This document shows positions 8,293 to 54,373 of a DNA stretch of 64,000 nt, piece by piece. Made by a program: the position numbers and the translations under genes. Positions within the stretch are counted from its first letter, which is position 1. Each line of letters starts with the position of its first letter. The notes under the pieces are model-generated. The model was not told where the DNA came from and searched no databases. It saw only the letters and a program-made list of their open reading frames with translations. Source of the stretch: Escherichia coli (lineage in GTDB: Bacteria > Pseudomonadota > Gammaproteobacteria > Enterobacterales > Enterobacteriaceae). The DNA lies in assembly GCF_041886205.1 (NCBI RefSeq), contig NZ_CP169029.1; one strand, written 5' to 3'.

Positions 8293-8835
8293 ATGTTAAA
8301 CCGTGACTTCGATCATCTCTCAACGCTATTACATCTCTTTTTTGAACGTGAGGATATTTGCCAAAAGCTTAATATTATTGACCAAAACAATATCACCGGT
8401 TGGGAAGTGTGGTTCCAGGTAGAATTTGCTAATATGCTCTGCTCAACAGACCATGAATGGTGGCGTGAACAGGCACTTTCCTGTGATATGCGCAAAAAAC
8501 CTGAACGCCCGACACTACGCACAGATTTCTTACTACGTAAAAAAGGCTGGGCGCAAGATAGCTATATCGCGCTTGAAATAAAACAAAACAGTGACGCGAC
8601 CAGTTGTGTTAAAAATATGATCGCAGACTTAGAAAAAAGCGCCAAAATCAAACGTTCAGAACTCGAGTTACGCAGTTTCTGGACCCTGGGTATCACCCCT
8701 GTGATAGACAGAGAAAGGCTGGATTCTCTCATCGATTGCTATTTAGATGAGAAATTTTATCTTACTAAATCTCGTAAAAAACACGTTTTACTTAAAGAAA
8801 TAAATAATACACCATATTCCTATATTGTTATTTAA
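8293..8835 (+). CDS. Hypothetical 180-aa protein with PD-(D/E)XK-like motif, AT-rich
   Basis: 543-nt ORF in strongly AT-rich DNA where long ORFs are unlikely by chance; AAGGA upstream of ATG; motif D(TDFLL)...E-I-K (YIALEIKQ) spaced like a PD-(D/E)XK nuclease core; I do not recall a gene between tsr and btsT in K-12. Confidence 0.5.
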   Translation: MLNRDFDHLSTLLHLFFEREDICQKLNIIDQNNITGWEVWFQVEFANMLCSTDHEWWREQALSCDMRKKPERPTLRTDFLLRKKGWAQDSYIALEIKQNSDATSCVKNMIADLEKSAKIKRSELELRSFWTLGITPVIDRERLDSLIDCYLDEKFYLTKSRKKHVLLKEINNTPYSYIVI

Positions 8836-12832: not shown

Positions 12833-14683
12833 ATGGCAACAATAATCCCAACAATCAGTAGCTGCAACGATAAAATTACTGCCGGAGAGAAAAGGCTGGC
12901 AAGAATTCTGGAAAGAGGACTAGGCGAAGAGTGCTGCTGTTGGTATGACATTCCCACGGGTGATAAGCATCTTCACCCAGATTTTATGATACTTTCGCCA
13001 GAAAAAGGCATTATTTTTCTCGAGGTAAAAGATTGGTTTATTACAAAAATAAAAAAAGCCAACAAGTCTAATGTGTGGTATGAGACACAAAATGGCATTC
13101 AATCTTTAAAGAATCCGATAGAACAAGTTAGGCGATATGCTTTCGAAGCTGTAAACCAGTTAAAAAAAGACCCCCTATTGCGCCAACAGGATGATCGTTA
13201 CAATGGCAATCTTCTTTTCCCCTATGGATATGGCGTCTACTTTAGTAATATTACACGAGAAGCATTAAATAATAAATTTACTCAAGAAGAGCTGCTCGGG
13301 ATCTTCCCATCAGATCTCATCATCTGCAAAGACGAACTAAATGAATTCATGTCAAAAGAGGATGTTTCATCTAAAATACATTCGTTAATTAAATATGACT
13401 TCAAATGTCATGCTACACAAGAACAGTTGAACAGGATTAGATGGCACTTATACCCCGATGTCAGAATAGAAAGGGAAAAGAGAAGTAAAAACCGTGATGA
13501 ATTGAGTGTCGATGCACCAACCATCATTTCTATCCTGGATACTCAACAGGAACAACTTGCCAGGAGTATGAGAGATGGCCACCGAATCATTCATGGTGTT
13601 GCAGGTTCAGGGAAGACATTGATCCTCTATCATCGCTGTCAGGAATTAGCGAAAAAAAATGACAGCGAAAAGCCAATACTTGTCATTTGCTACAATATTA
13701 CTTTAGCCAAAAAACTTCGGTCGATGTTCATCAATCATCCCTTTGCAGAGAAAATAAAGGTTAAAAATTTTCATGCATGGTGTTTCCAACAAATTAAAGA
13801 AAACAAGATCACCATTCCAGAAGGGGATAATATTTTTGAAAATATGGAGCAAGCGTTGACTGATGGTTTCAACACAGGAAAAATAAAACCAGAACAATAC
13901 AGCGCTGTATTAATTGATGAAGGACATGATTTTAAGCCCGAATGGTTAAAAATCCTTGCAAAAATGACTGACTCTCAGGACGAGAATTTGCTATTCCTTT
14001 ATGATGATGCTCAGTCAATTTACCAAAAAAAGAAAGCATTAGACTTTACACTGTCCAGCGTAGATATTAAAGCGACAGGGCGCACAACTATTCTTAATAT
14101 AAATTATAGAAACACACAGCAAATCCTACACTTTGCCAGTTGCATTGCATTTAATTATCTTAATAGCCATATCGATAGTTCTTTAACCTATCATAAACCT
14201 GCTGCGGGAGGAATGAATGGCGATTATCCCAACCTTGAACATTTCGACACACAGGACGAAGAAATAGCAAGAGCAGTCAAATGGATTACAGAGCAAAATG
14301 AACAAGGGATTCCGTGGTCTGAAATTGCTATACTAAGTCCATCAACTCATACCCTTTCTAACTCTCTAAGTTCTGTACTTGAATCGAAAAACATCCCCTT
14401 TAATCTTATTGTAAGCTCTGCAGATAAAAAATCCTGGACGCCAGAACAAGAGCGTGTTTCTGTGATGCCATTACCCAGCAGCAAAGGGCTTGAGTTTCAC
14501 TCAGTTGTCATTATTGACGCAGCGAGAACACGGGATAATAGCGATGATTTGAGTGAGGATATAAAGAGACTCTATGTAGGTTTTACCCGAGCACGTTGCA
14601 ATCTCTTGGTAACCTTGCACGGTGAAGGTGCGTTAAATGAGCATCTACTAAAAACCTATGAGCAAAGCCCACAATATATGTAA
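12833..14683 (+). CDS. NERD-domain nuclease fused to SF1 (UvrD-like) helicase; Nhi-like candidate anti-phage protein
   Basis: 616 aa; N-terminal NERD-like region with PD...(E)VK core (HPDFMIL ... IIFLEVKDW); Walker A GVAGSGKT, Walker B VLIDEGHDF, SF1 motif V/VI-like LPSSKGLEFHSVVII and LYVGFTRARCNLLV; AT-rich; occupies the slot that holds mrr-hsdRMS in K-12. Confidence 0.75.
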   Translation: MATIIPTISSCNDKITAGEKRLARILERGLGEECCCWYDIPTGDKHLHPDFMILSPEKGIIFLEVKDWFITKIKKANKSNVWYETQNGIQSLKNPIEQVRRYAFEAVNQLKKDPLLRQQDDRYNGNLLFPYGYGVYFSNITREALNNKFTQEELLGIFPSDLIICKDELNEFMSKEDVSSKIHSLIKYDFKCHATQEQLNRIRWHLYPDVRIEREKRSKNRDELSVDAPTIISILDTQQEQLARSMRDGHRIIHGVAGSGKTLILYHRCQELAKKNDSEKPILVICYNITLAKKLRSMFINHPFAEKIKVKNFHAWCFQQIKENKITIPEGDNIFENMEQALTDGFNTGKIKPEQYSAVLIDEGHDFKPEWLKILAKMTDSQDENLLFLYDDAQSIYQKKKALDFTLSSVDIKATGRTTILNINYRNTQQILHFASCIAFNYLNSHIDSSLTYHKPAAGGMNGDYPNLEHFDTQDEEIARAVKWITEQNEQGIPWSEIAILSPSTHTLSNSLSSVLESKNIPFNLIVSSADKKSWTPEQERVSVMPLPSSKGLEFHSVVIIDAARTRDNSDDLSEDIKRLYVGFTRARCNLLVTLHGEGALNEHLLKTYEQSPQYM

Positions 14684-14827: not shown

Positions 14828-15121
14828 TTGCTGTTAAATTCCAGCGCGTTAGCCGCTGGAATTAACAAGATCAGACTTCCGGCAACGAAGAGCCAGTTAT
14901 TACAAAAATTACTGGCAAAAGAGATAAAAAGCATTGTTGACAACACATCGAAATATCCTGACTGGAGTAAACACGATGATATTAAAGCGAAACTGAAAGT
15001 TGAACTTATTCTGCTTCTACACAAGCATAAGTTCCCGTCAGTAGCGAATGATGATGTTTATATGGGTGTGCTGGCACAGGCAGAGAGTTTTAAAGAACAT
15101 CATATGAGTCCTATAAATTAA
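14828..15121 (+). pseudogene. Orphan ORF fragment without ATG start, possible relic of a displaced restriction cassette
   Basis: 97-codon frame beginning at TTG with no convincing RBS; reads like the C-terminal tail of a larger protein; located between the NERD-helicase gene and symE. Confidence 0.3.
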
Positions 15122-15299
15122 TCATGAAGGCTGGATACACTTTGTTATCCGGCCATTGTGAATTAACGTTAATTTTTCTTCCAAATCTTTCCAGTAACGC
15201 TTTTATTATTTTCTATTTTTAGCTGGACTTTCCCTGTATTTACTGATGATATGTCCAGGTATTTAGCGCGGTGCGGATGTGCGCCAACACACCCGCACC

Positions 15300-15376
15300 A
15301 CTCATCACAATCACTATTTTCAAGGAATAGCAGTTATGACTGACACGCATTTTATTGCACAACCGTTCGAAGCAGA
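15300..15376 (-). ncRNA. symR: Expected position of SymR antisense sRNA (type I antitoxin) overlapping the symE RBS and start
   Basis: Placement inferred from the known symE/symR arrangement; boundaries not determinable from sequence alone. Confidence 0.35.
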
Positions 15377-15677
15377 AGTCTCCCCGGCAAATAACCGTCA
15401 ATTAACCGTGAGTTATGCGAGCCGCTACCCGGATTACAGCCGTATTCCCGCCATCACCCTGAAAGGTCAGTGGCTGGAAGCCGCCGGTTTTGCCACCGGC
15501 ACGGCGGTAGATGTCAAAGTAATGGAAGGCTGTATTGTCCTCACCGCCCAACAACCCGCCGCCGAAGAGAGCGAACTGATGCAGTCGCTGCGCCAGGTGT
15601 GCAAACTGTCGGCGCGTAAACAAAAGCAGGTGCAGGATTTTATTGGGGTGATTGCCGGTAAACAGAAAGTCGCCTGA
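15336..15677 (+). CDS. symE: SOS-induced toxin SymE (AbrB/MazE-like fold endoribonuclease)
   Basis: 113 aa from ATG 15336 with AAGGAA SD; sequence [25 protein letters not shown] ... matches remembered SymE (YjiW). Confidence 0.8.
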
Positions 15678-15684
15678 TAAATTG

Positions 15685-15716
15685 ACCCGGTAGCGCCAGT
15701 GCTACCGGGTATTATT
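15685..15716. terminator. Bidirectional hairpin between convergent symE and GmrSD-like gene
   Basis: acccggtagc / gccagt / gctaccgggt followed by attatt; lies between stop codons 15677 and 15724. Confidence 0.6.
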
Positions 15717-15723
15717 CGCCACG

Positions 15724-17817
15724 TTATACCAACGCGCTCTCCATCTGTTTTTCAAATGCCTGACGAATTAATCCCATAATGTAAGGAAGTTGTGCGAGGT
15801 CGCTGAAACCAATTTCCACATCACCATTACCCCAGCGCCCAATATTTGTCACATCTTTGGCAATACCTTTCGGATCGACCAGTTCATGAAACTGCATATT
15901 AAGCGACAATCGCAGTCGGCTTTTTTGCGGCACAACATCAACAAAATTCGTTTCAGCTTTAAACGCAATATACAGCTTTAAAACTTCCTGCGTGATCCCT
16001 GCGTCCAGGCGCATAACTTCATCGCGAAGATGATCGAATAACACCCGGCTATGCGAACCATCAGCAAGAAAAGGATAATCACTCAGGCTGTAACTGGTTT
16101 TGTTTTCTGGCTGCCCCCGATAAACAGCTAAAACCTCTTCAGAAAGAGAAGGCGCTTGCCAGACCTGAACCGCGAGATCGGCCAGACGATCGGCTCGGGC
16201 GTGAATGGCGGCTTCATCCCATTTTTCGCACTGTCCAAGACCGATATTCAAATAAAGCGGGCTATGTTTAAAGCCATCTTCAATATCGCGTTTTTCCGCG
16301 AAAGGTCTGTCACTGTAGCGGGAGTTATAGCGCGTTAAAGTGAGATTCCCCAACGTATGTAACAGTTCTTTATGCACACGCTGCCAGTCGCTTCCCAGCT
16401 CTTCACGCCATTTAGCCGACAGATTTTCGTTCTGCGGCATAATGTGCTCAATCGTAAACTCTTCCACGCGCTCTCTGCGTTTATCGTTTTCCAGTCGTCG
16501 TAACCAGTAGCTGCGGCTGCGGAAGTTATAGAGATCGCGCACTTTTAATTCCCGTTTAAATTCATCATCGTTGGGGAAACGACGATATGAAGGCAGGTTC
16601 ATAAAATGTACCTGAATACTTTCCAGATATTTTTCTTTATTAATGACCTTATAAAAAGTGGCAAACGTCTTGTTAAGAGAATTCGTCGGAATCGCACATA
16701 CTGCACGGCGGAAAACATAAGATTCAATTAAACGAATTATGCTCAGGAAATCTTCGTGAGACAAATCGTCATTTTTATAGTCATGATAAAGCGCCAGTAA
16801 GAAAGGATACGCCACATCAACCTTTAACTCGCGCAAATCCTGAAAAGCCGTAGCAAGCGATTTGTCACTTTCTTTTCCCAATGCCATTGCACAGTAATAC
16901 TCCGCGTAGATATGAATATCTTCAACCAGCCGATCTACGCCTTTTTCAGCAACACTCTGGCTGCGGGCATGGAGTTTAAATGCCTCATAGACTTCATCTG
17001 TCCGAGGGATCTCCCCCGTTTTTACCGTCAGATAATGACGCATAAAACTGTCAAAATATTCGCTGTAACCTTGCTGACCAAAGGCGACTTCCATTGGACG
17101 CCAGTGATCTTCATACAACCGGGTTTGATGCTCTGGTTCGAGACCCATCAGAATAAAATTGCGCACCAGATCGGCCTGACTTAACGCCTTACCGGTGGAG
17201 TTCATACTTTCAAAAATCAGTTGCGGATTATCCTGACCACGATTAAGCGCCACATCGACAATTAATAACTTTGCTAACCCTCGACATAAGGGAATCAAGT
17301 CATCCCCGAGTTTGGCAATTTGCTCATCAAAGAAAGTAAAGTTTTCCATTATTCGATGGGAATAGTTTTCTGGCATTGGTCTTTGTTTTATTAACGCCAG
17401 CAAACTGTCTTTATCAGTCTCGGTCAGCAGTAATTTAAAACCTTTCTCGCCGGACTCATAAGGATTGAGCAAATAATAATTACGCAATTTCATTGCCGAA
17501 AAGCCATCAAAAACTTCGTCTTCGCCAAGATGGCGCGATAAAGCCTCAATCAGCAACATTGCGGTCGTCAGCCGCTGCTGACCATCAATGACCAGCAACG
17601 GAGAAATACCAGAAACCTGATACAACCCCTGCTCAATATAAACAACCGAACCGATAAAATGCGCTGATATATCGTCACGCTTTCCGGCACGAATGATGTC
17701 GTCCCAAAGTTGCCGACATTGTTGCCCGGTCCATGAATAGGTGCGTTGATAAATGGGAATAACAAACTGCTGCGAACGTTTTAAAAAATCGAGTAGGCGG
17801 GCTTCTGTAGCTTTCAT
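15724..17817 (-). CDS. Type IV modification-dependent restriction endonuclease, GmrSD family (DUF262 + DUF1524)
   Basis: 697 aa; N-terminal DUF262/ParB-like NTPase motifs (IPIYQRTYSW, IDGQQRLTT); C-terminal DUF1524 His-Me finger motifs (EHIMPQ, HTLGNLTLT); sits where mcrBC lies in K-12. Confidence 0.75.
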   Translation of the reverse strand: MKATEARLLDFLKRSQQFVIPIYQRTYSWTGQQCRQLWDDIIRAGKRDDISAHFIGSVVYIEQGLYQVSGISPLLVIDGQQRLTTAMLLIEALSRHLGEDEVFDGFSAMKLRNYYLLNPYESGEKGFKLLLTETDKDSLLALIKQRPMPENYSHRIMENFTFFDEQIAKLGDDLIPLCRGLAKLLIVDVALNRGQDNPQLIFESMNSTGKALSQADLVRNFILMGLEPEHQTRLYEDHWRPMEVAFGQQGYSEYFDSFMRHYLTVKTGEIPRTDEVYEAFKLHARSQSVAEKGVDRLVEDIHIYAEYYCAMALGKESDKSLATAFQDLRELKVDVAYPFLLALYHDYKNDDLSHEDFLSIIRLIESYVFRRAVCAIPTNSLNKTFATFYKVINKEKYLESIQVHFMNLPSYRRFPNDDEFKRELKVRDLYNFRSRSYWLRRLENDKRRERVEEFTIEHIMPQNENLSAKWREELGSDWQRVHKELLHTLGNLTLTRYNSRYSDRPFAEKRDIEDGFKHSPLYLNIGLGQCEKWDEAAIHARADRLADLAVQVWQAPSLSEEVLAVYRGQPENKTSYSLSDYPFLADGSHSRVLFDHLRDEVMRLDAGITQEVLKLYIAFKAETNFVDVVPQKSRLRLSLNMQFHELVDPKGIAKDVTNIGRWGNGDVEIGFSDLAQLPYIMGLIRQAFEKQMESALV

Positions 17818-18254
17818 TCTGACGTCTTTCCGTGAAGCGATGATTTCGCAATAATAACCGCTTCCTTGTGGAGGTTATAGAGAAATCCTGTTTATCCGCG
17901 ATGAATTGCCCCCTCACTCCACATCCTCCCTACGTAACCCAATATCCCTCAACCGCTCATCACTCATCTGCTGTAACACTCGTCGGGTCTGCATTTGCCG
18001 CCGCCAACGCCTCACCGCCTGCCAGAGTTGCACAAGTCTGATAAACGGCGTTTTGGCTTTGTTTTCGTGAAATTCCATCTGCTGCCTCCTCATCTTTCAG
18101 AGGCTTCATCATCCGCCTTCTGGCAGTTCACAATACAGATGCAAATATTAGTTTTATTTAACATACAGACAGGTTAAAACAGCATCTGCATCCGGTTTTT
18201 TAGCCTCATCTGTACCGGTTTTTCTTTCTGTATGGGCCAAATAAGGAATACAGC

Positions 18255-19667
18255 ATGACGCGTTATCAACATCTGGCGACTCTACTTGCCGAGCGGATTG
18301 AGCAAGGGCTGTATCGTCACGGGGAGAAATTGCCGTCGGTGCGCAGCTTAAGTCAGGAGCACGGCGTCAGCATCAGCACCGTGCAACAGGCGTATCAGAC
18401 GCTGGAAACGATGAGGCTCATCACTCCGCAGCCGCGTTCGGGTTATTTTGTCGCACAACGTAAAGCCCAGCCGCCTGTACCGCCGATGACGCGTCCGGTG
18501 CAGCGCCCGGTGGAAATTACCCAGTGGGATCAGGTGCTGGATATGCTGGAGGCGCATAGCGACAGTTCCATTGTTCCGTTAAGCAAAAGCACGCCGGATG
18601 TCGAAACGCCCAGCCTGAAACCGCTGTGGCGGGAGCTAAGCCGGGTGGTGCAGCATAATCTACAAACCGTTCTCGGTTATGACTTGTTAGCCGGTCAGCG
18701 AGTGTTGCGAGAGCAGATTGCCCGCCTGATGCTCGACAGCGGCTCGGTGGTCACCGCCGATGACATCATCATCACCAGCGGCTGCCATAACTCGATGTCG
18801 CTGGCGTTAATGGCGGTGTGTAAACCGGGCGATATTGTCGCGGTCGAATCCCCCTGTTATTACGGTTCGATGCAGATGCTGCGCGGCATGGGCGTGAAAG
18901 TGATTGAAATCCCAACCGATCCAGAAACTGGCATCAGCGTCGAAGCGCTGGAACTGGCGCTGGAACAGTGGCCGATTAAAGGCATCATTCTGGTGCCAAA
19001 CTGTAATAATCCGCTGGGATTTATTATGCCGGACGCACGCAAACGGGCCGTTCTCTCTCTCGCTCAGCGTCATGATATTGTGATTTTTGAAGATGATGTC
19101 TACGGCGAACTGGCAACGGAGTATCCGCGCCCGCGGACCATCCATTCATGGGATATCGACGGGCGAGTGTTGTTGTGCAGCTCGTTCAGTAAAAGTATTG
19201 CTCCAGGCCTGCGCGTGGGTTGGGTCGCACCGGGGCGTTATCACGATAAACTGCTGCATATGAAATACGCCATCAGCAGCTTTAATGTGCCGTCCACGCA
19301 AATGGCGGCGGCAACGTTTGTGCTGGAAGGTCACTATCATCGCCATATCCGGCGGATGCGGCAGACTTATCAGCGCAATCTGGCGCTTTATACCTGCTGG
19401 ATACGGGAATATTTTCCCTGCGAAATCTGTATTACGCGCCCGAAAGGCGGATTTTTACTGTGGATCGAATTGCCTGAACAGGTCGATATGGTTTGCGTTG
19501 CGCGGCAGCTGTGCCGCATGAAAATCCAGGTGGCGGCAGGCTCGATTTTCTCGGCTTCCGGCAAATATCGTAATTGTCTGCGCATCAACTGCGCTTTGCC
19601 GCTCAGCGAAACCTATCGCGAAGCACTGAAGCAAATTGGCGAAGCCGTGTATCGGGCAATGGAATGA
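18255..19667 (+). CDS. yjiR: MocR-type GntR-family regulator with PLP aminotransferase-like domain
   Basis: 470 aa; N-terminal GntR wHTH (SVRSLSQEHGVSISTVQQAYQTLE) fused to class I/II aminotransferase-fold domain. Confidence 0.8.
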   Translation: MTRYQHLATLLAERIEQGLYRHGEKLPSVRSLSQEHGVSISTVQQAYQTLETMRLITPQPRSGYFVAQRKAQPPVPPMTRPVQRPVEITQWDQVLDMLEAHSDSSIVPLSKSTPDVETPSLKPLWRELSRVVQHNLQTVLGYDLLAGQRVLREQIARLMLDSGSVVTADDIIITSGCHNSMSLALMAVCKPGDIVAVESPCYYGSMQMLRGMGVKVIEIPTDPETGISVEALELALEQWPIKGIILVPNCNNPLGFIMPDARKRAVLSLAQRHDIVIFEDDVYGELATEYPRPRTIHSWDIDGRVLLCSSFSKSIAPGLRVGWVAPGRYHDKLLHMKYAISSFNVPSTQMAAATFVLEGHYHRHIRRMRQTYQRNLALYTCWIREYFPCEICITRPKGGFLLWIELPEQVDMVCVARQLCRMKIQVAAGSIFSASGKYRNCLRINCALPLSETYREALKQIGEAVYRAME

Positions 19668-49846: not shown

Positions 49847-49992
49847 AGAGAATGTCCTTATACGTTCTCAGAACAAGCAGCAAAAAAACAAATGAGATCA
49901 AAGTAATATATCTTCACTTGCAGGCTTGAACAGCAGAAAATTTGCGAGCATGATCGCAATTATTTCACTGCCAGGGAGGTAATGACTCCAAC

Positions 49993-50496
49993 TTATTGAT
50001 AGTGTTTTATGTTCAGATAATGCCCGATGACTTTGTCATGCAGCTCCACCGATTTTGAGAACGACAGCGACTTCCGTCCCAGCCGTGCCAGGTGCTGTCT
50101 CAGATTCAGGTTATGCCGCTCAATTCGCTGCGTATATCGCTTGCTGATTACGTGCAGCTTTCCCTTCAGGCGGGATTCATACAGCGGCCAGCCATCCGTC
50201 ATCCATATCACCACGTCAAAGGGTGACAGCAGGCTCATAAGACGCCCCAGCGTCGCCATAGTGCGTTCACCGAATACGTGCGCAACAACCGTCTTCCGGA
50301 GCCTGTCATACGCGTAAAACAGCCAGCGCTGGCGCGATTTAGCCCCGACATAGCCCCACTGTTCGTCCATTTCCGCGCAGACGATGACGTCACTGCCCGG
50401 CTGTATGCGCGAGGTTACCGACTGCGGCCTGAGTTTTTTAAATGGCGGAAAATCGTGTTGAGGCCAACGCCCATAATGCGGGCGGTTGCCCGGCAT
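49993..50496 (-). CDS. insB: IS1 transposase InsB
   Basis: 167-aa ORF matching IS1 InsB ([19 protein letters not shown]...). Confidence 0.9.
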
Positions 50497-50690
50497 CCAA
50501 CGCCATTCATGGCCATATCAATGATTTTCTGGTGCGTACCGGGTTGAGAAGCGGTGTAAGTGAACTGCAGTTGCCATGTTTTACGGCAGTGAGAGCAGAG
50601 ATAGCGCTGATGTCCGGCGGTGCTTTTGCCGTTACGCACCACCCCGTCAGTAGCTGAACAGGAGGGACAGCTGATAGAAACAGAAGCCAC
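50415..50690 (-). CDS. insA: IS1 protein InsA
   Basis: 91 aa, zinc-finger [37 protein letters not shown]; overlaps insB as in IS1 (frameshift fusion InsAB'). Confidence 0.9.
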
Positions 50691-50766
50691 TGGAGCACCT
50701 CAAAAACACCATCATACACTAAATCAGTAAGTTGGCAGCATCACCCAGCAAACGAACCTGGATGAT

Positions 50767-51057
50767 TTGCCGGATAAAGCCAGCATCATTGACGCGTTTT
50801 TTACCTTTGCTCAACGCGAACAGCAACGTGAAGCAGAAGCCTTGATCAAAGAAGAAAATCTCAATGAAGAGGCGGCGAAACGCTATATTCGCACGTCTTT
50901 AAAACGCGAATACGCCACCGAAAATGGCACGGAATTAAACGAGACATTGCCAAAACTCAGTCCGTTAAATCCGCAATATAAGACGAAAAAACAGACGGTT
51001 TTCCAGAAGATCGTCGCGTTTATTGAGAAGTTTAAAGGTGTAGGCGGGCAGATATAA
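50767..51057 (+). pseudogene. Truncated ORF (C-terminal fragment) abutting the IS1 end
   Basis: 96-codon frame beginning 22 bp after the IS1 terminus; charged, helical-looking sequence; followed by a perfect hairpin cctgatctg/cagatcagg; identity unknown. Confidence 0.35.
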
Positions 51058-51241
51058 TGTATTAATCCGAACCTGATCTGGCAGATAGCTGTCAGATCAG
51101 GACTGAGCTAATACAAATTAATGTCGAACCGAAAATACCAACGCCTGTACCAACATTTTTCGTTTGCGATGGGTTGGAATTGGTTAGCCCTGAGAGAGTT
51201 AAAATAGCGAGAAAGATAGGTAACTAACGGATTTCAGACAC

Positions 51242-51266
51242 AAAAAAAGCCGCTCTTGAGCGGCTC
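51242..51266 (-). terminator. Rho-independent terminator of leuX
   Basis: Minus strand: gccgctc / tcaa / gagcggc followed by a T-run (plus-strand aaaaaaa at 51242-51248). Confidence 0.75.
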
Positions 51267-51282
51267 GATTTGCATACGGTGT

Positions 51283-51367
51283 GGTGCCGAAGGCCGGACT
51301 CGAACCGGCACGTATTTCTACGGTTGATTTTGAATCAACTGCGTCTACCGATTTCGCCACTTCGGCA
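51283..51367 (-). tRNA. leuX: tRNA-Leu (anticodon CAA)
   Basis: 85-nt minus-strand sequence GCCGAAGTGGCGAAATCGGTAGACGCAGTTGATTCAAAATCAACCGTAGAAATACGTGCCGGTTCGAGTCCGGCCTTCGGCACCA; anticodon loop TTCAAAA; next to ahr as in K-12. Confidence 0.92.
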
Positions 51368-51561
51368 CTGAAGAGGTATGCGGAAAACGTTGTGGATTAT
51401 ACCTGTCGCACGCCACCATGCAAGCGCCAGCTTGCTCGCACCTCGCTAAGTGCTGAAATTTTCAGCATTGCATACAGCGATGTGTAACCTTTGTCACACT
51501 CCAGGCACCCCGCCCTGCCATGCTCTACACTTCCCAGACCACACCAGAGAAGGACCAAAAA

Positions 51562-52581
51562 ATGTCGATGATAAGAAGCTATGCCGCAAAAGAAGCGGGC
51601 GGCGAACTGGAAGTTTATGAGTACGATCCCGGTGAGCTGAAGCCACAAGATATTGAAGTGCAGGTGGATTACTGCGGGATCTGCCATTCCGATCTGTCGA
51701 TGATCGATAACGAATGGGGATTTTCACAATATCCGCTGGTTGCCGGGCATGAGGTGATTGGGCGCGTGGTGGCACTCGGGAGCGCCGCGCAGGATAAAGG
51801 TTTGCAGGTCGGTCAGCGTGTCGGGATTGGCTGGACGGCGCGTAGCTGTGGTCACTGCGACGCCTGTATTAGCGGTAATCAGATCAACTGCGAGCAAGGT
51901 GCGGTGCCAACAATTATGAATCGCGGCGGTTTTGCCGAGAAGTTGCGTGCGGACTGGCAATGGGTGATTCCACTGCCAGAAAATATTGATATCGAGTCCG
52001 CCGGGCCGCTGTTGTGCGGCGGTATCACGGTCTTTAAACCACTGTTGATGCACCATATCACTGCTACCAGCCGCGTTGGGGTAATTGGTATTGGCGGGCT
52101 GGGGCATATCGCTATAAAACTTCTGCACGCAATGGGATGCGAGGTGACAGCCTTTAGTTCGAATCCGGCGAAAGAGCAGGAAGTGCTGGCGATGGGTGCC
52201 GATAAAGTGGTGAATAGCCGCGATCCGCAGGCACTCAAAGCACTGGCGGGGCAGTTTGATCTCATTATCAATACTGTGAACGTCAGCCTCGACTGGCAGC
52301 CTTATTTTGAGGCGCTGACCTATGGCGGTAATTTCCATACGGTCGGTGCGGTTCTCACGCCGCTGTCTGTTCCGGCCTTTACGTTAATTGCGGGCGATCG
52401 CAGCGTCTCTGGTTCTGCTACCGGCACGCCTTATGAGCTGCGTAAGCTGATGCGTTTTGCCGCCCGCAGCAAGGTTGCGCCGACTACCGAACTGTTCCCG
52501 ATGTCGAAAATTAACGACGCCATTCAGCATGTACGCGATGGTAAAGCGCGCTACCGAGTGGTCCTGAAAGCCGACTTCTGA
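51562..52581 (+). CDS. ahr: NADPH-dependent aldehyde reductase (Zn-ADH family)
   Basis: 339 aa from [14 protein letters not shown]; Zn-ADH motif [12 protein letters not shown], Cys cluster CGHCDAC, Rossmann GIGGLGH. Confidence 0.85.
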
Positions 52582-52710
52582 TCCCTTTGCCGGGTGCCTG
52601 TCGCCCGGCACTTAAATCTCTTTGGAAGGCATCTCGCAATCTGCTTAATTTAGCGGTGAAGAGTGCATAGCCGTTGCCTATACTCCAGGCAGGAAACTGG
52701 AGGAAATCTC

Positions 52711-54213
52711 ATGAGTGAACCCCTGTTAATTGCCCGCACGCCGGACACAGAACTGTTTTTACTGCCGGGAATGGCTAACCGTCACGGGCTGATTACTGGC
52801 GCAACGGGGACGGGTAAAACTGTCACGCTGCAAAAACTGGCGGAGTCTCTATCGGAAATCGGTGTTCCGGTGTTTATGGCCGATGTGAAAGGCGATCTGA
52901 CCGGCGTCGCGCAGGCAGGAACGGCGTCGGAAAAACTGCTCGCAAGGCTTAAAAATATCGGCGTCAATGACTGGCAACCGCATGCCAATCCGGTGGTGGT
53001 GTGGGATATCTTTGGCGAGAAAGGCCATCCGGTGCGGGCGACGGTTTCGGATCTGGGGCCGCTGTTGCTGGCGCGGCTGTTGAATCTCAACGATGTGCAA
53101 TCTGGCGTGCTGAATATCATCTTCCGCATTGCTGACGATCAGGGGCTGTTACTGCTCGACTTTAAAGATTTGCGGGCGATTACCCAGTACATCGGCGATA
53201 ACGCCAAATCTTTCCAGAATCAGTACGGTAATATCAGTAGCGCATCGGTTGGTGCCATCCAGCGCGGATTACTGTCGCTGGAACAGCAAGGCGCAGCACA
53301 CTTCTTTGGTGAGCCGATGCTGGATATCAAAGACTGGATGCGCACCGATGCCAACGGTAAAGGCGTTATCAATATCCTCAGCGCCGAGAAACTTTATCAG
53401 ATGCCGAAACTGTACGCCGCCAGCCTGCTGTGGATGCTTTCAGAGTTGTATGAACAATTGCCGGAAGCGGGCGATCTGGAGAAACCAAAACTGGTGTTTT
53501 TCTTCGACGAGGCACATCTGCTGTTTAACGATGCACCGCAGGTACTGCTGGATAAGATTGAGCAGGTGATAAGGCTTATTCGCTCAAAAGGCGTGGGCGT
53601 CTGGTTCGTTTCGCAAAACCCGTCTGATATTCCGGATAATGTGCTCGGCCAGCTCGGTAATCGCGTTCAGCACGCTTTGCGGGCTTTTACGCCCAAAGAT
53701 CAGAAAGCAGTGAAGGCAGCGGCGCAAACCATGCGGGCCAATCCGGCATTTGATACCGAAAAGGCAATCCAGGAACTGGGGACCGGCGAGGCGTTAATCT
53801 CGTTTCTCGATGCAAAAGGAAGTCCTTCTGTGGTGGAACGGGCGATGGTGATTGCGCCTTGTTCGCGGATGGGACCGGTGACGGAAGATGAGCGCAATGG
53901 CTTGATTAATCACTCTCCGGTGTATGGCAAGTACGAGGATGACGTGGACCGGGAATCCGCCTATGAGATGTTGCAAAAAGGCTTTCAGGCCAGTACCGAG
54001 CAGCAAAATAATCCTCCCGCGAAAGGGAAAGAGGTGGCGGTGGATGACGGTATTCTTGGTGGATTGAAGGATATTTTGTTTGGCACTACCGGACCACGCG
54101 GCGGGAAGAAAGATGGTGTGGTGCAAACAATGGCGAAAAGCGCCGCCCGCCAGGTGACGAATCAGATTGTACGCGGGATGTTGGGGAGTTTGCTGGGGGG
54201 GAGAAGAAGGTAA
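52711..54213 (+). CDS. yjgR: DUF853-family P-loop NTPase
   Basis: 500 aa from [11 protein letters not shown]; Walker A GATGTGKT; Walker B-like [10 protein letters not shown]. Confidence 0.8.
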
Positions 54214-54373
54214 GTCAGGCGCGATTTGTCTTTGCCTGATGCGACGCTGGCGCGTCTTATCATGCCTACACCACTGCAACATATTGGATTTTCATGATTT
54301 TTCAGGCATGAACGAAGCACACTTTGCTAACAATAATAAAGGGAGCTTTAGCTCCCTTTATTCGTTCATCAGG

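Follow-up and report, generated by a model that had tools for sequence, protein, structure and literature searches.

What stands in the place of the McrBC restriction genes in an Escherichia coli chromosome, and whether its product would attack the same kind of DNA, are the questions raised by a stretch of 64,000 nucleotides from contig NZ_CP169029.1 (the window, as this whole stretch is called below). The window is a part of the E. coli chromosome, and the gene under study lies within the immigration control region (ICR), between symE and yjiS, where a first-pass annotation of the DNA had proposed a stand-alone restriction gene of the GmrSD family. Its product of 697 residues is almost certainly a diverged, genuine member of this family and, with a probability of roughly 0.65, acts as a modification-dependent (Type IV) restriction enzyme, as judged by analogy with the characterised relatives. 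The presence of gmrSD in the mcrBC slot is correct but already published: He et al. 2015 (PMC4437046) listed the orthologues, with UTI89 and CFT073 among the carriers, and stated that gmrSD replaces mcrBC, and the 2025 EcoSal Plus review (PMC12707154) gives GmrSD in 12% and McrBC in 6% of 9,040 ICR loci. The additions made here are minor, and concern the closer kinship of the family with the prototype GmrSD than with DndI, SspE or BrxU, the fold of its DUF5655 domain, its frequency relative to mcrBC and the split RefSeq annotation of the gene.

The position of the gene was established by the alignment of the window with the K-12 strain MG1655, the homology to which ends at 15673, in the 3' end of symE, and restarts at 17909, in the 3' end of yjiS; the same gap in K-12 holds 7.6 kb with yjiT, yjiV, mcrC and mcrB, so that the proposed mcrBC position was confirmed by the breakpoints themselves. 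The gene order, read from the annotation of strain 6EVA, is tsr, btsT, yjiX, yjiA, an open reading frame (ORF) of 616 residues, a C-terminal remnant of hsdR, symE, the gmrSD gene, yjiS and yjiR, with yjiN farther on. The window is identical to 6EVA over 15000-18300 and 99.4% identical over its first 28 kb, and represents the DNA of a near relative distinct from 6EVA itself. The ICR is defined by the anchors yjiA and yjiN (PMC12707154); the gene lies between them, and alternative contents of the same interval were found in K-12, APEC O1, O157:H7 and CH4794. The K-12 gene yjiT was also considered as a remnant of gmrSD, which would make the latter the ancestral occupant of the slot, and was rejected, as BLASTP finds no similarity between the two (E 0.93).

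The domain assignment had been proposed from the DGQQR motif of an N-terminal DUF262 domain and from the EHIMPQ and GNLTL motifs of a C-terminal DUF1524 His-Me finger, and Pfam recovered both domains of GmrSD with these motifs in their places (Table 1), together with a third, C-terminal domain, DUF5655, which the first-pass annotation had overlooked. According to Machnicka et al. 2015, the GmrSD family is recognised by the presence of the two domains in a single chain, with 200-400 residues of alpha-helical linker between them. In the AlphaFold2 model of the window protein (pLDDT 92.3) both domains stand on one chain with a helical linker, the helices extending over residues ~228-443. Among 65 homologues, whose identity ranges over 33-65%, the residues P21, Q24, R25, W29, D78, Q80, Q81, R82, N206, R370, P461 and N491 are invariant, while G79, E457, H458 and N498 are conserved in at least 90%. 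The identical protein is deposited in NCBI as a 'DUF262 domain-containing protein' (EET4964996.1, UniRef A0A4S1QIZ9) and occurs on 159 contigs; its 90% cluster counts 3,852 members, and a search of 1.84 billion representative proteins yielded 2,753 relatives below E 1e-30, with the three-domain architecture in 90 of the best 150 of them. NCBIfam has no model for the protein, and the top PADLOC model is 'Orf5' (PDLC02693, E 1.9e-223), on whose parent system the literature queries gave no answer.

The relation to the characterised enzymes was assessed with a profile built from the 65 family members, with the sequences of CT596 GmrSD and BrxU taken from a published supplementary alignment and with equal database size for all scores. 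The prototype CT596 GmrSD is by far the best characterised match, with 259.9 bits (E 4e-76), followed by DndI with 139 bits (E 1.4e-39), SspE with 82 bits (E 2.7e-22) and BrxU with 16.9 bits (E 0.014), and by these scores the family is much nearer to CT596 GmrSD than to DndI, SspE or BrxU. The earlier grouping with GmrSD, BrxU and SspE holds well for the GmrSD family and loosely for the other two. BLASTP against CT596 GmrSD gives 24% identity (E 3e-29, 639 columns), collinear over residues 1-553 and through the linker, which places the protein beside an experimentally characterised GmrSD; the same 24% was reported by He et al. 2015 between APECO1_2080 and Eco94GmrSD (PMC4437046). From the DUF262 NTPase through the helical linker to the DUF1524 His-Me finger, the parts follow one another as in EcoCT596 GmrSD, Eco94GmrSD and UTI89_C2960, and the motifs DGQQR, (D/E)HxxP and GNLTL are common to CT596 GmrSD and the window protein. 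E457-H458 aligns with D507-H508 of the CT596/Eco94 GmrSD, the alanine mutants of which lose all cleavage in Eco94 GmrSD (PMC4437046). The prototypes are prophage-borne, 629 residues long and devoid of DUF5655, whereas the window gene is chromosomal, located in the ICR, and encodes the longer protein with DUF5655; nothing material distinguishes it from the orthologue in APEC O1.

Searches of the PDB gave another ranking, with DndI of Salmonella Cerro 87 (9JFL) first (profile E 1.4e-39 over the full length; Foldseek E 2e-17, template-modelling scores 0.49/0.55), followed by SspE and then BrxU. A closer kinship to DndI and SspE than to true GmrSD was suspected from this ranking and was rejected on the profile scores given above; DndI tops the PDB lists because the prototype GmrSD has no solved structure. 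DndI shares the DUF262 and DUF1524 plan and aligns over the whole core, but has 19% identity, no DUF5655 and a dependence on the phosphorothioation by DndBCDE, in the absence of which it is toxic. BrxU (E. fergusonii pEFER; PDB 7P9K) and SspE (PDB 6JIV/7DRS) belong to the same two-domain superfamily with the DGQQR NTPase motif. The match to SspE, which needs sspABCD, lies chiefly in the first ~100 residues, with a second weak match (7.3 bits) in the nuclease region, and the dimer-to-monomer cycle of BrxU, driven by nucleoside triphosphate (NTP), may apply to the window protein as well.

The stand-alone status proposed at first pass was upheld by the surroundings of the gene, because its neighbours vary from strain to strain and no methyltransferase, dnd, ssp or brx gene adjoins it. 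In the window it is flanked by an ORF encoding a NERD-UvrD protein and by the hsdR remnant; in APEC O1 the allele lies between symE and a yjiS remnant, beside mrr-hsdRMS-symE; and in O157:H7 its neighbours are the type I hsdM and hsdS, with symE. The annotation of 6EVA, over the near-identical stretches covering the window at 1-49977 and 50749-61937, contains no dnd, ssp or brx genes; within the two longer stretches unmatched to 6EVA, an IS1 InsB ORF and a divergent yjgN allele were found. A gene of the BrxU subtype is expected inside a BREX operon, between brxC and pglX, and no brx or pgl genes occur in the window; SspE is a protein of ~770 residues accompanied by sspABCD or sspBCD, and no ssp genes occur there either; DndI accompanies dndBCDE, whether or not dndFGH is present, and no dnd genes were found within the 64-kb window, the genome beyond it being unsearched. 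As is usual for the GmrSD family, no cognate modification enzyme accompanies the gene. Its distant relatives, several of which sit on contigs too short to give a context, likewise occur in islands of restriction-modification (R-M) and defence genes that lack dnd and ssp, where they adjoin DISARM-like or type IIG genes or methyltransferases, or stand between hsdS and hsdR. The last arrangement is that of a three-domain relative with 44% identity on a metagenome contig (L013, 66-6816), which has hsdS on one side and hsdR on the other, inside a type I R-M operon, and matches the 'type I-embedded' setting described for other GmrSD-like systems.

The mode of action may be sketched from the characterised relatives, namely the CT596/Eco94 GmrSD and BrxU. 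By binding and hydrolysing NTP, the N-terminal domain probably brings about a change in conformation or in oligomeric form that activates the nuclease, after which the His-Me finger would, with Mg2+, cleave the incoming DNA bearing modified bases. The likeliest targets are the DNAs of T-even phages with hydroxymethylcytosine (hmC) or glucosyl-hydroxymethylcytosine (glc-hmC), while unmodified host DNA would be spared, and therefore no methyltransferase partner would be needed. The specificity for hmC and glc-hmC itself is a tentative assignment, held at rather less than even odds. Several points weigh against the reading of the protein as a Type IV enzyme and should be set beside the kinship. 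No characterised enzyme shares more than 24% identity with the protein; DndI, the closest solved structure, does not depend on modification in the way of a Type IV enzyme; and N522 of Eco94, reported as essential, aligns with L474, though the asparagine of GNLTL is shared. The substrate preference varies widely within the family, from glc-hmC only to hmC with glc-hmC, or to 5-methylcytosine as well (PMC12707154). Silas et al. 2025 give the activity per cluster only in figures.

The structural match to DndI, with SspE next, also lies behind another reading, by which the protein would be a DndI- or SspE-like nuclease, or an orphan of this kind, that reads the host phosphorothioate (PT) marks to tell self from non-self. 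DndI heads the solved structures both by profile and by fold, and the aromatic residue of its YQR motif that senses PT (Y25) is matched by Y23; this aromatic residue, however, belongs to a general DUF262 motif, for which CT596 GmrSD has FYQR. The window carries no dnd or ssp genes, the gene is carried by one in four E. coli genomes and its neighbours vary, cells without PT are harmed by the toxicity of DndI (PMC11662687), and the profile favours the modification-dependent CT596 GmrSD over DndI by 260 to 139 bits, all of which makes the PT reading very unlikely. A defence nuclease triggered by something other than base modification, for instance a guard or back-up of a type I system, or an effector of abortive infection that a phage protein switches on, is unlikely as well, even if the surroundings of several members invite the thought: the metagenome relative stands between hsdS and hsdR, the CH4794 member is divergent from hsdMSR, and the APEC O1 allele is downstream of hsdRMS-symE, while the swappable C-terminal modules could be sensors. 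But the proximity to R-M genes is expected of any gene in a defence island, the window gene persists while the island and leuX have just remnants of hsdR, and the characterised close relatives all act directly on modified DNA.

A Type IV enzyme in use must also be distinguished from a decaying or inactive gene. The gene is intact, functional and under strong purifying selection: intact alleles of strains 2824 and APEC O1 encode proteins with 98.7% and 98.3% identity to the window protein, and the ratio of nonsynonymous to synonymous substitution rates (dN/dS) against them is 0.06 at dS 0.10-0.12 (dS 0.12 against APEC O1 over the whole length), with 0.12 for the DUF5655 part. The appearance of decay comes from the RefSeq annotation by PGAP, which splits the uninterrupted ORF into a 'GmrSD/DUF1524' coding sequence of 387 residues and a pseudogene for the N-terminal 'DUF262' part, both in the genomes examined (the loci L001, L002 and L004 among them) and in nearly all those listed, from a real 1-nt deletion in O157:H7 FRIK944 (L006, 3001-5093) that leaves a DUF262 ORF of 293 residues and a DUF1524 ORF of 387 residues, and from insertion sequences or truncated remnants in other strains. 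The ORFs of the window, 2824 and APEC O1 are nevertheless uninterrupted, the catalytic motifs are all intact, the dN/dS is low and the earlier GenBank records annotate the full protein of 697 residues, so that decay or inactivity is scarcely credible. The split annotation was probably propagated from the genuinely frameshifted O157:H7 allele. The split in O157:H7 is reminiscent of CT596, for which GmrS and GmrD were originally described as two chains.

The C-terminal DUF5655 domain folds as a YjbR/YdhG/frataxin-like alpha-beta-alpha sandwich, similar to the 'double wing' with which T4 MotA binds DNA. Among the close relatives devoid of this domain, some end at ~560 residues, and others carry in its place DUF4268 (five cases), RAMA, DUF4357 or an MGMT-type DNA-binding domain, which agrees with the variable C-terminal additions described for the family by Machnicka et al. 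2015. Because of the YjbR/YdhG fold, the resemblance to MotA and the swapping of modules in the sister proteins, DUF5655 may be taken, from fold and position alone, as an accessory DNA-binding or specificity module. It is further conceivable, if doubtful, that the ICR clade of ~700 residues with DUF5655 differs from the glc-hmC/hmC prototype, and that by its 'double wing' it would read another DNA mark, or would evade or sense the injected phage inhibitors.

The gene was found over at least 80% of its length in 1,351 of the 5,426 complete E. coli genomes, compared with 582 for mcrBC of the K-12 type, and the statement that it replaces McrBC is a K-12-centred view, because the gmrSD gene is the commoner of the two. 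McrBC of K-12 occupies the same symE-yjiS slot, and is likewise a Type IV, NTP-dependent system that attacks DNA with modified cytosine. It consists of the AAA+ GTPase McrB and the PD-(D/E)xK nuclease McrC, encoded by two genes, and involves a long-range translocation between two sites. Its proteins are unrelated to the window protein, and a functional replacement of McrBC by this subfamily in the restriction of modified DNA may be supposed by analogy. The notion of an exchange at a fixed site proved not strictly right. CH4794 (L005, 7996-10095) carries a same-family member of 699 residues, with 76% protein identity and saturated synonymous sites, at the yjiA end of the ICR, where it adjoins Fic and BrnA genes and is divergent from the type I hsdMSR operon, and the 'fixed site' is in fact two slots of one island, occupied in different strains.

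Table 1. Coordinates in the window of the gmrSD-family gene, its domains and motifs, and the surrounding features
Feature	Coordinates	Strand	Remarks
gmrSD-family gene	15724..17817	-	intact ORF of 697 residues, ATG start, TAA stop, no internal stop
GmrSD_N (PF03235, former DUF262), ParB-Srx-like NTPase domain	17152..17793	-	residues 9-222, Pfam E 4.1e-34
Motifs of the N-terminal domain	17572-17586 (DGQQR)		IYQRTYSW 22-29; DGQQR 78-82; FESMNSTG 202-209
Linker/middle region	16576..17151	-	residues 223-414, mostly alpha-helical in the AlphaFold2 model
GmrSD_C (PF07510, former DUF1524), His-Me finger nuclease domain	16177..16575	-	residues 415-547, Pfam E 1.6e-26
Nuclease motifs	16432-16449 (EHIMPQ); 16336-16350 (GNLTL)		EHIMPQ 457-462 (E457-H458-x-x-P461); GNLTL 490-494 (N491)
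DUF5655 (PF18899), C-terminal	15748..16047	-	residues 591-690, Pfam E 3.6e-13
Segment without K-12 counterpart	15674..17908	.	2.2 kb; blastn of the window against MG1655
symE, conserved flank	15336..15677	+	convergent with the gmrSD gene; 6EVA annotation; 93.6% identity to K-12
yjiS, conserved flank	17914..18078	-	same orientation as gmrSD, 96 bp upstream of its start
Perfect inverted repeat, 9 bp	15686..15709	.	CCCGGTAGC / GCTACCGGG, 6-nt loop; read from the sequence
NERD + UvrD-helicase protein	12833-14683	+	intact ORF of 616 residues annotated as '3'-5' exonuclease'; PADLOC candidate C3a187, E 2.7e-140; weaker GajB/Nhi-like matches
hsdR C-terminal remnant	14912-15121
IS1 InsB ORF and short hsdR remnant	49977-51057 (InsB ORF 49993-50496; hsdR 50767-51057)		beside tRNA-Leu (leuX)

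The gmrSD gene may be co-transcribed with yjiS, and no convincing sigma-70 match was found between the two in a consensus scan. The inverted repeat, flanked by the stop codons of the convergent symE and gmrSD genes and located inside the segment without a K-12 counterpart, might possibly serve as a terminator shared by both genes; in the consensus scan for promoters and terminators, the sites were no more frequent than in shuffled sequence, and this hairpin was not flagged.

As for the wider surroundings, the NERD-UvrD ORF and the hsdR remnant occupy the place of mrr-hsdRMS in K-12, and with respect to APEC O1 the window has exchanged the neighbouring mrr-hsdRMS for these two. The NERD-UvrD ORF is a pseudogene in strain 6EVA, owing to a C-to-T change at window position 13418. 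At leuX, 6EVA has an 8.7-kb island with a type I R-M system and the DUF4942 and AbiEii genes; the window, both there and in the ICR, has hsdR remnants alone, with no type I system intact. Two further features were noted in the window: a hypothetical ORF of 180 residues at 8293-8835 (+), in a stretch of 36.5% G+C between tsr and btsT, with no PADLOC match; and a block of low G+C (36-38%) at 26000-29000, for which the 6EVA annotation gives a pentapeptide-repeat protein of 696 residues, its gene inserted after the one that follows yjiL and before the SdiA-regulated-domain gene.

In the recent literature, Silas et al. 2025 (doi 10.1038/s41467-025-63056-3) described CLS_001 as the commonest enterobacterial cluster of GmrSD, synthesised a representative of each common cluster, CLS_001 included, and reported five additional active systems. 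The window family is very probably CLS_001, because this cluster lists WP_001531297, the CH4794 protein with 76% identity to the window protein, because it also contains WP_021557501, the accession number of which is adjacent to that of the symE of a carrier strain, and because its members are of ~699 residues and located in the ICR. The literature queries on strain names and locus tags returned nothing past He et al. 2015.

The gene occurs in roughly two E. coli genomes for every one with the textbook mcrBC, and its split annotation can hide the N-terminal domain from the surveys of annotated proteins. The C-terminal module is a candidate determinant of specificity, and, if the clade with DUF5655 does differ from the prototype in what it reads or senses, the exchange of DUF5655 with DUF4268, RAMA, DUF4357 or the MGMT-type domain would be a route of specificity reprogramming in the family. 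The substrate of the enzyme matters for one in four E. coli strains, among them the uropathogenic UTI89 and CFT073 as well as O157:H7, and is relevant to the host range of phages in phage therapy.

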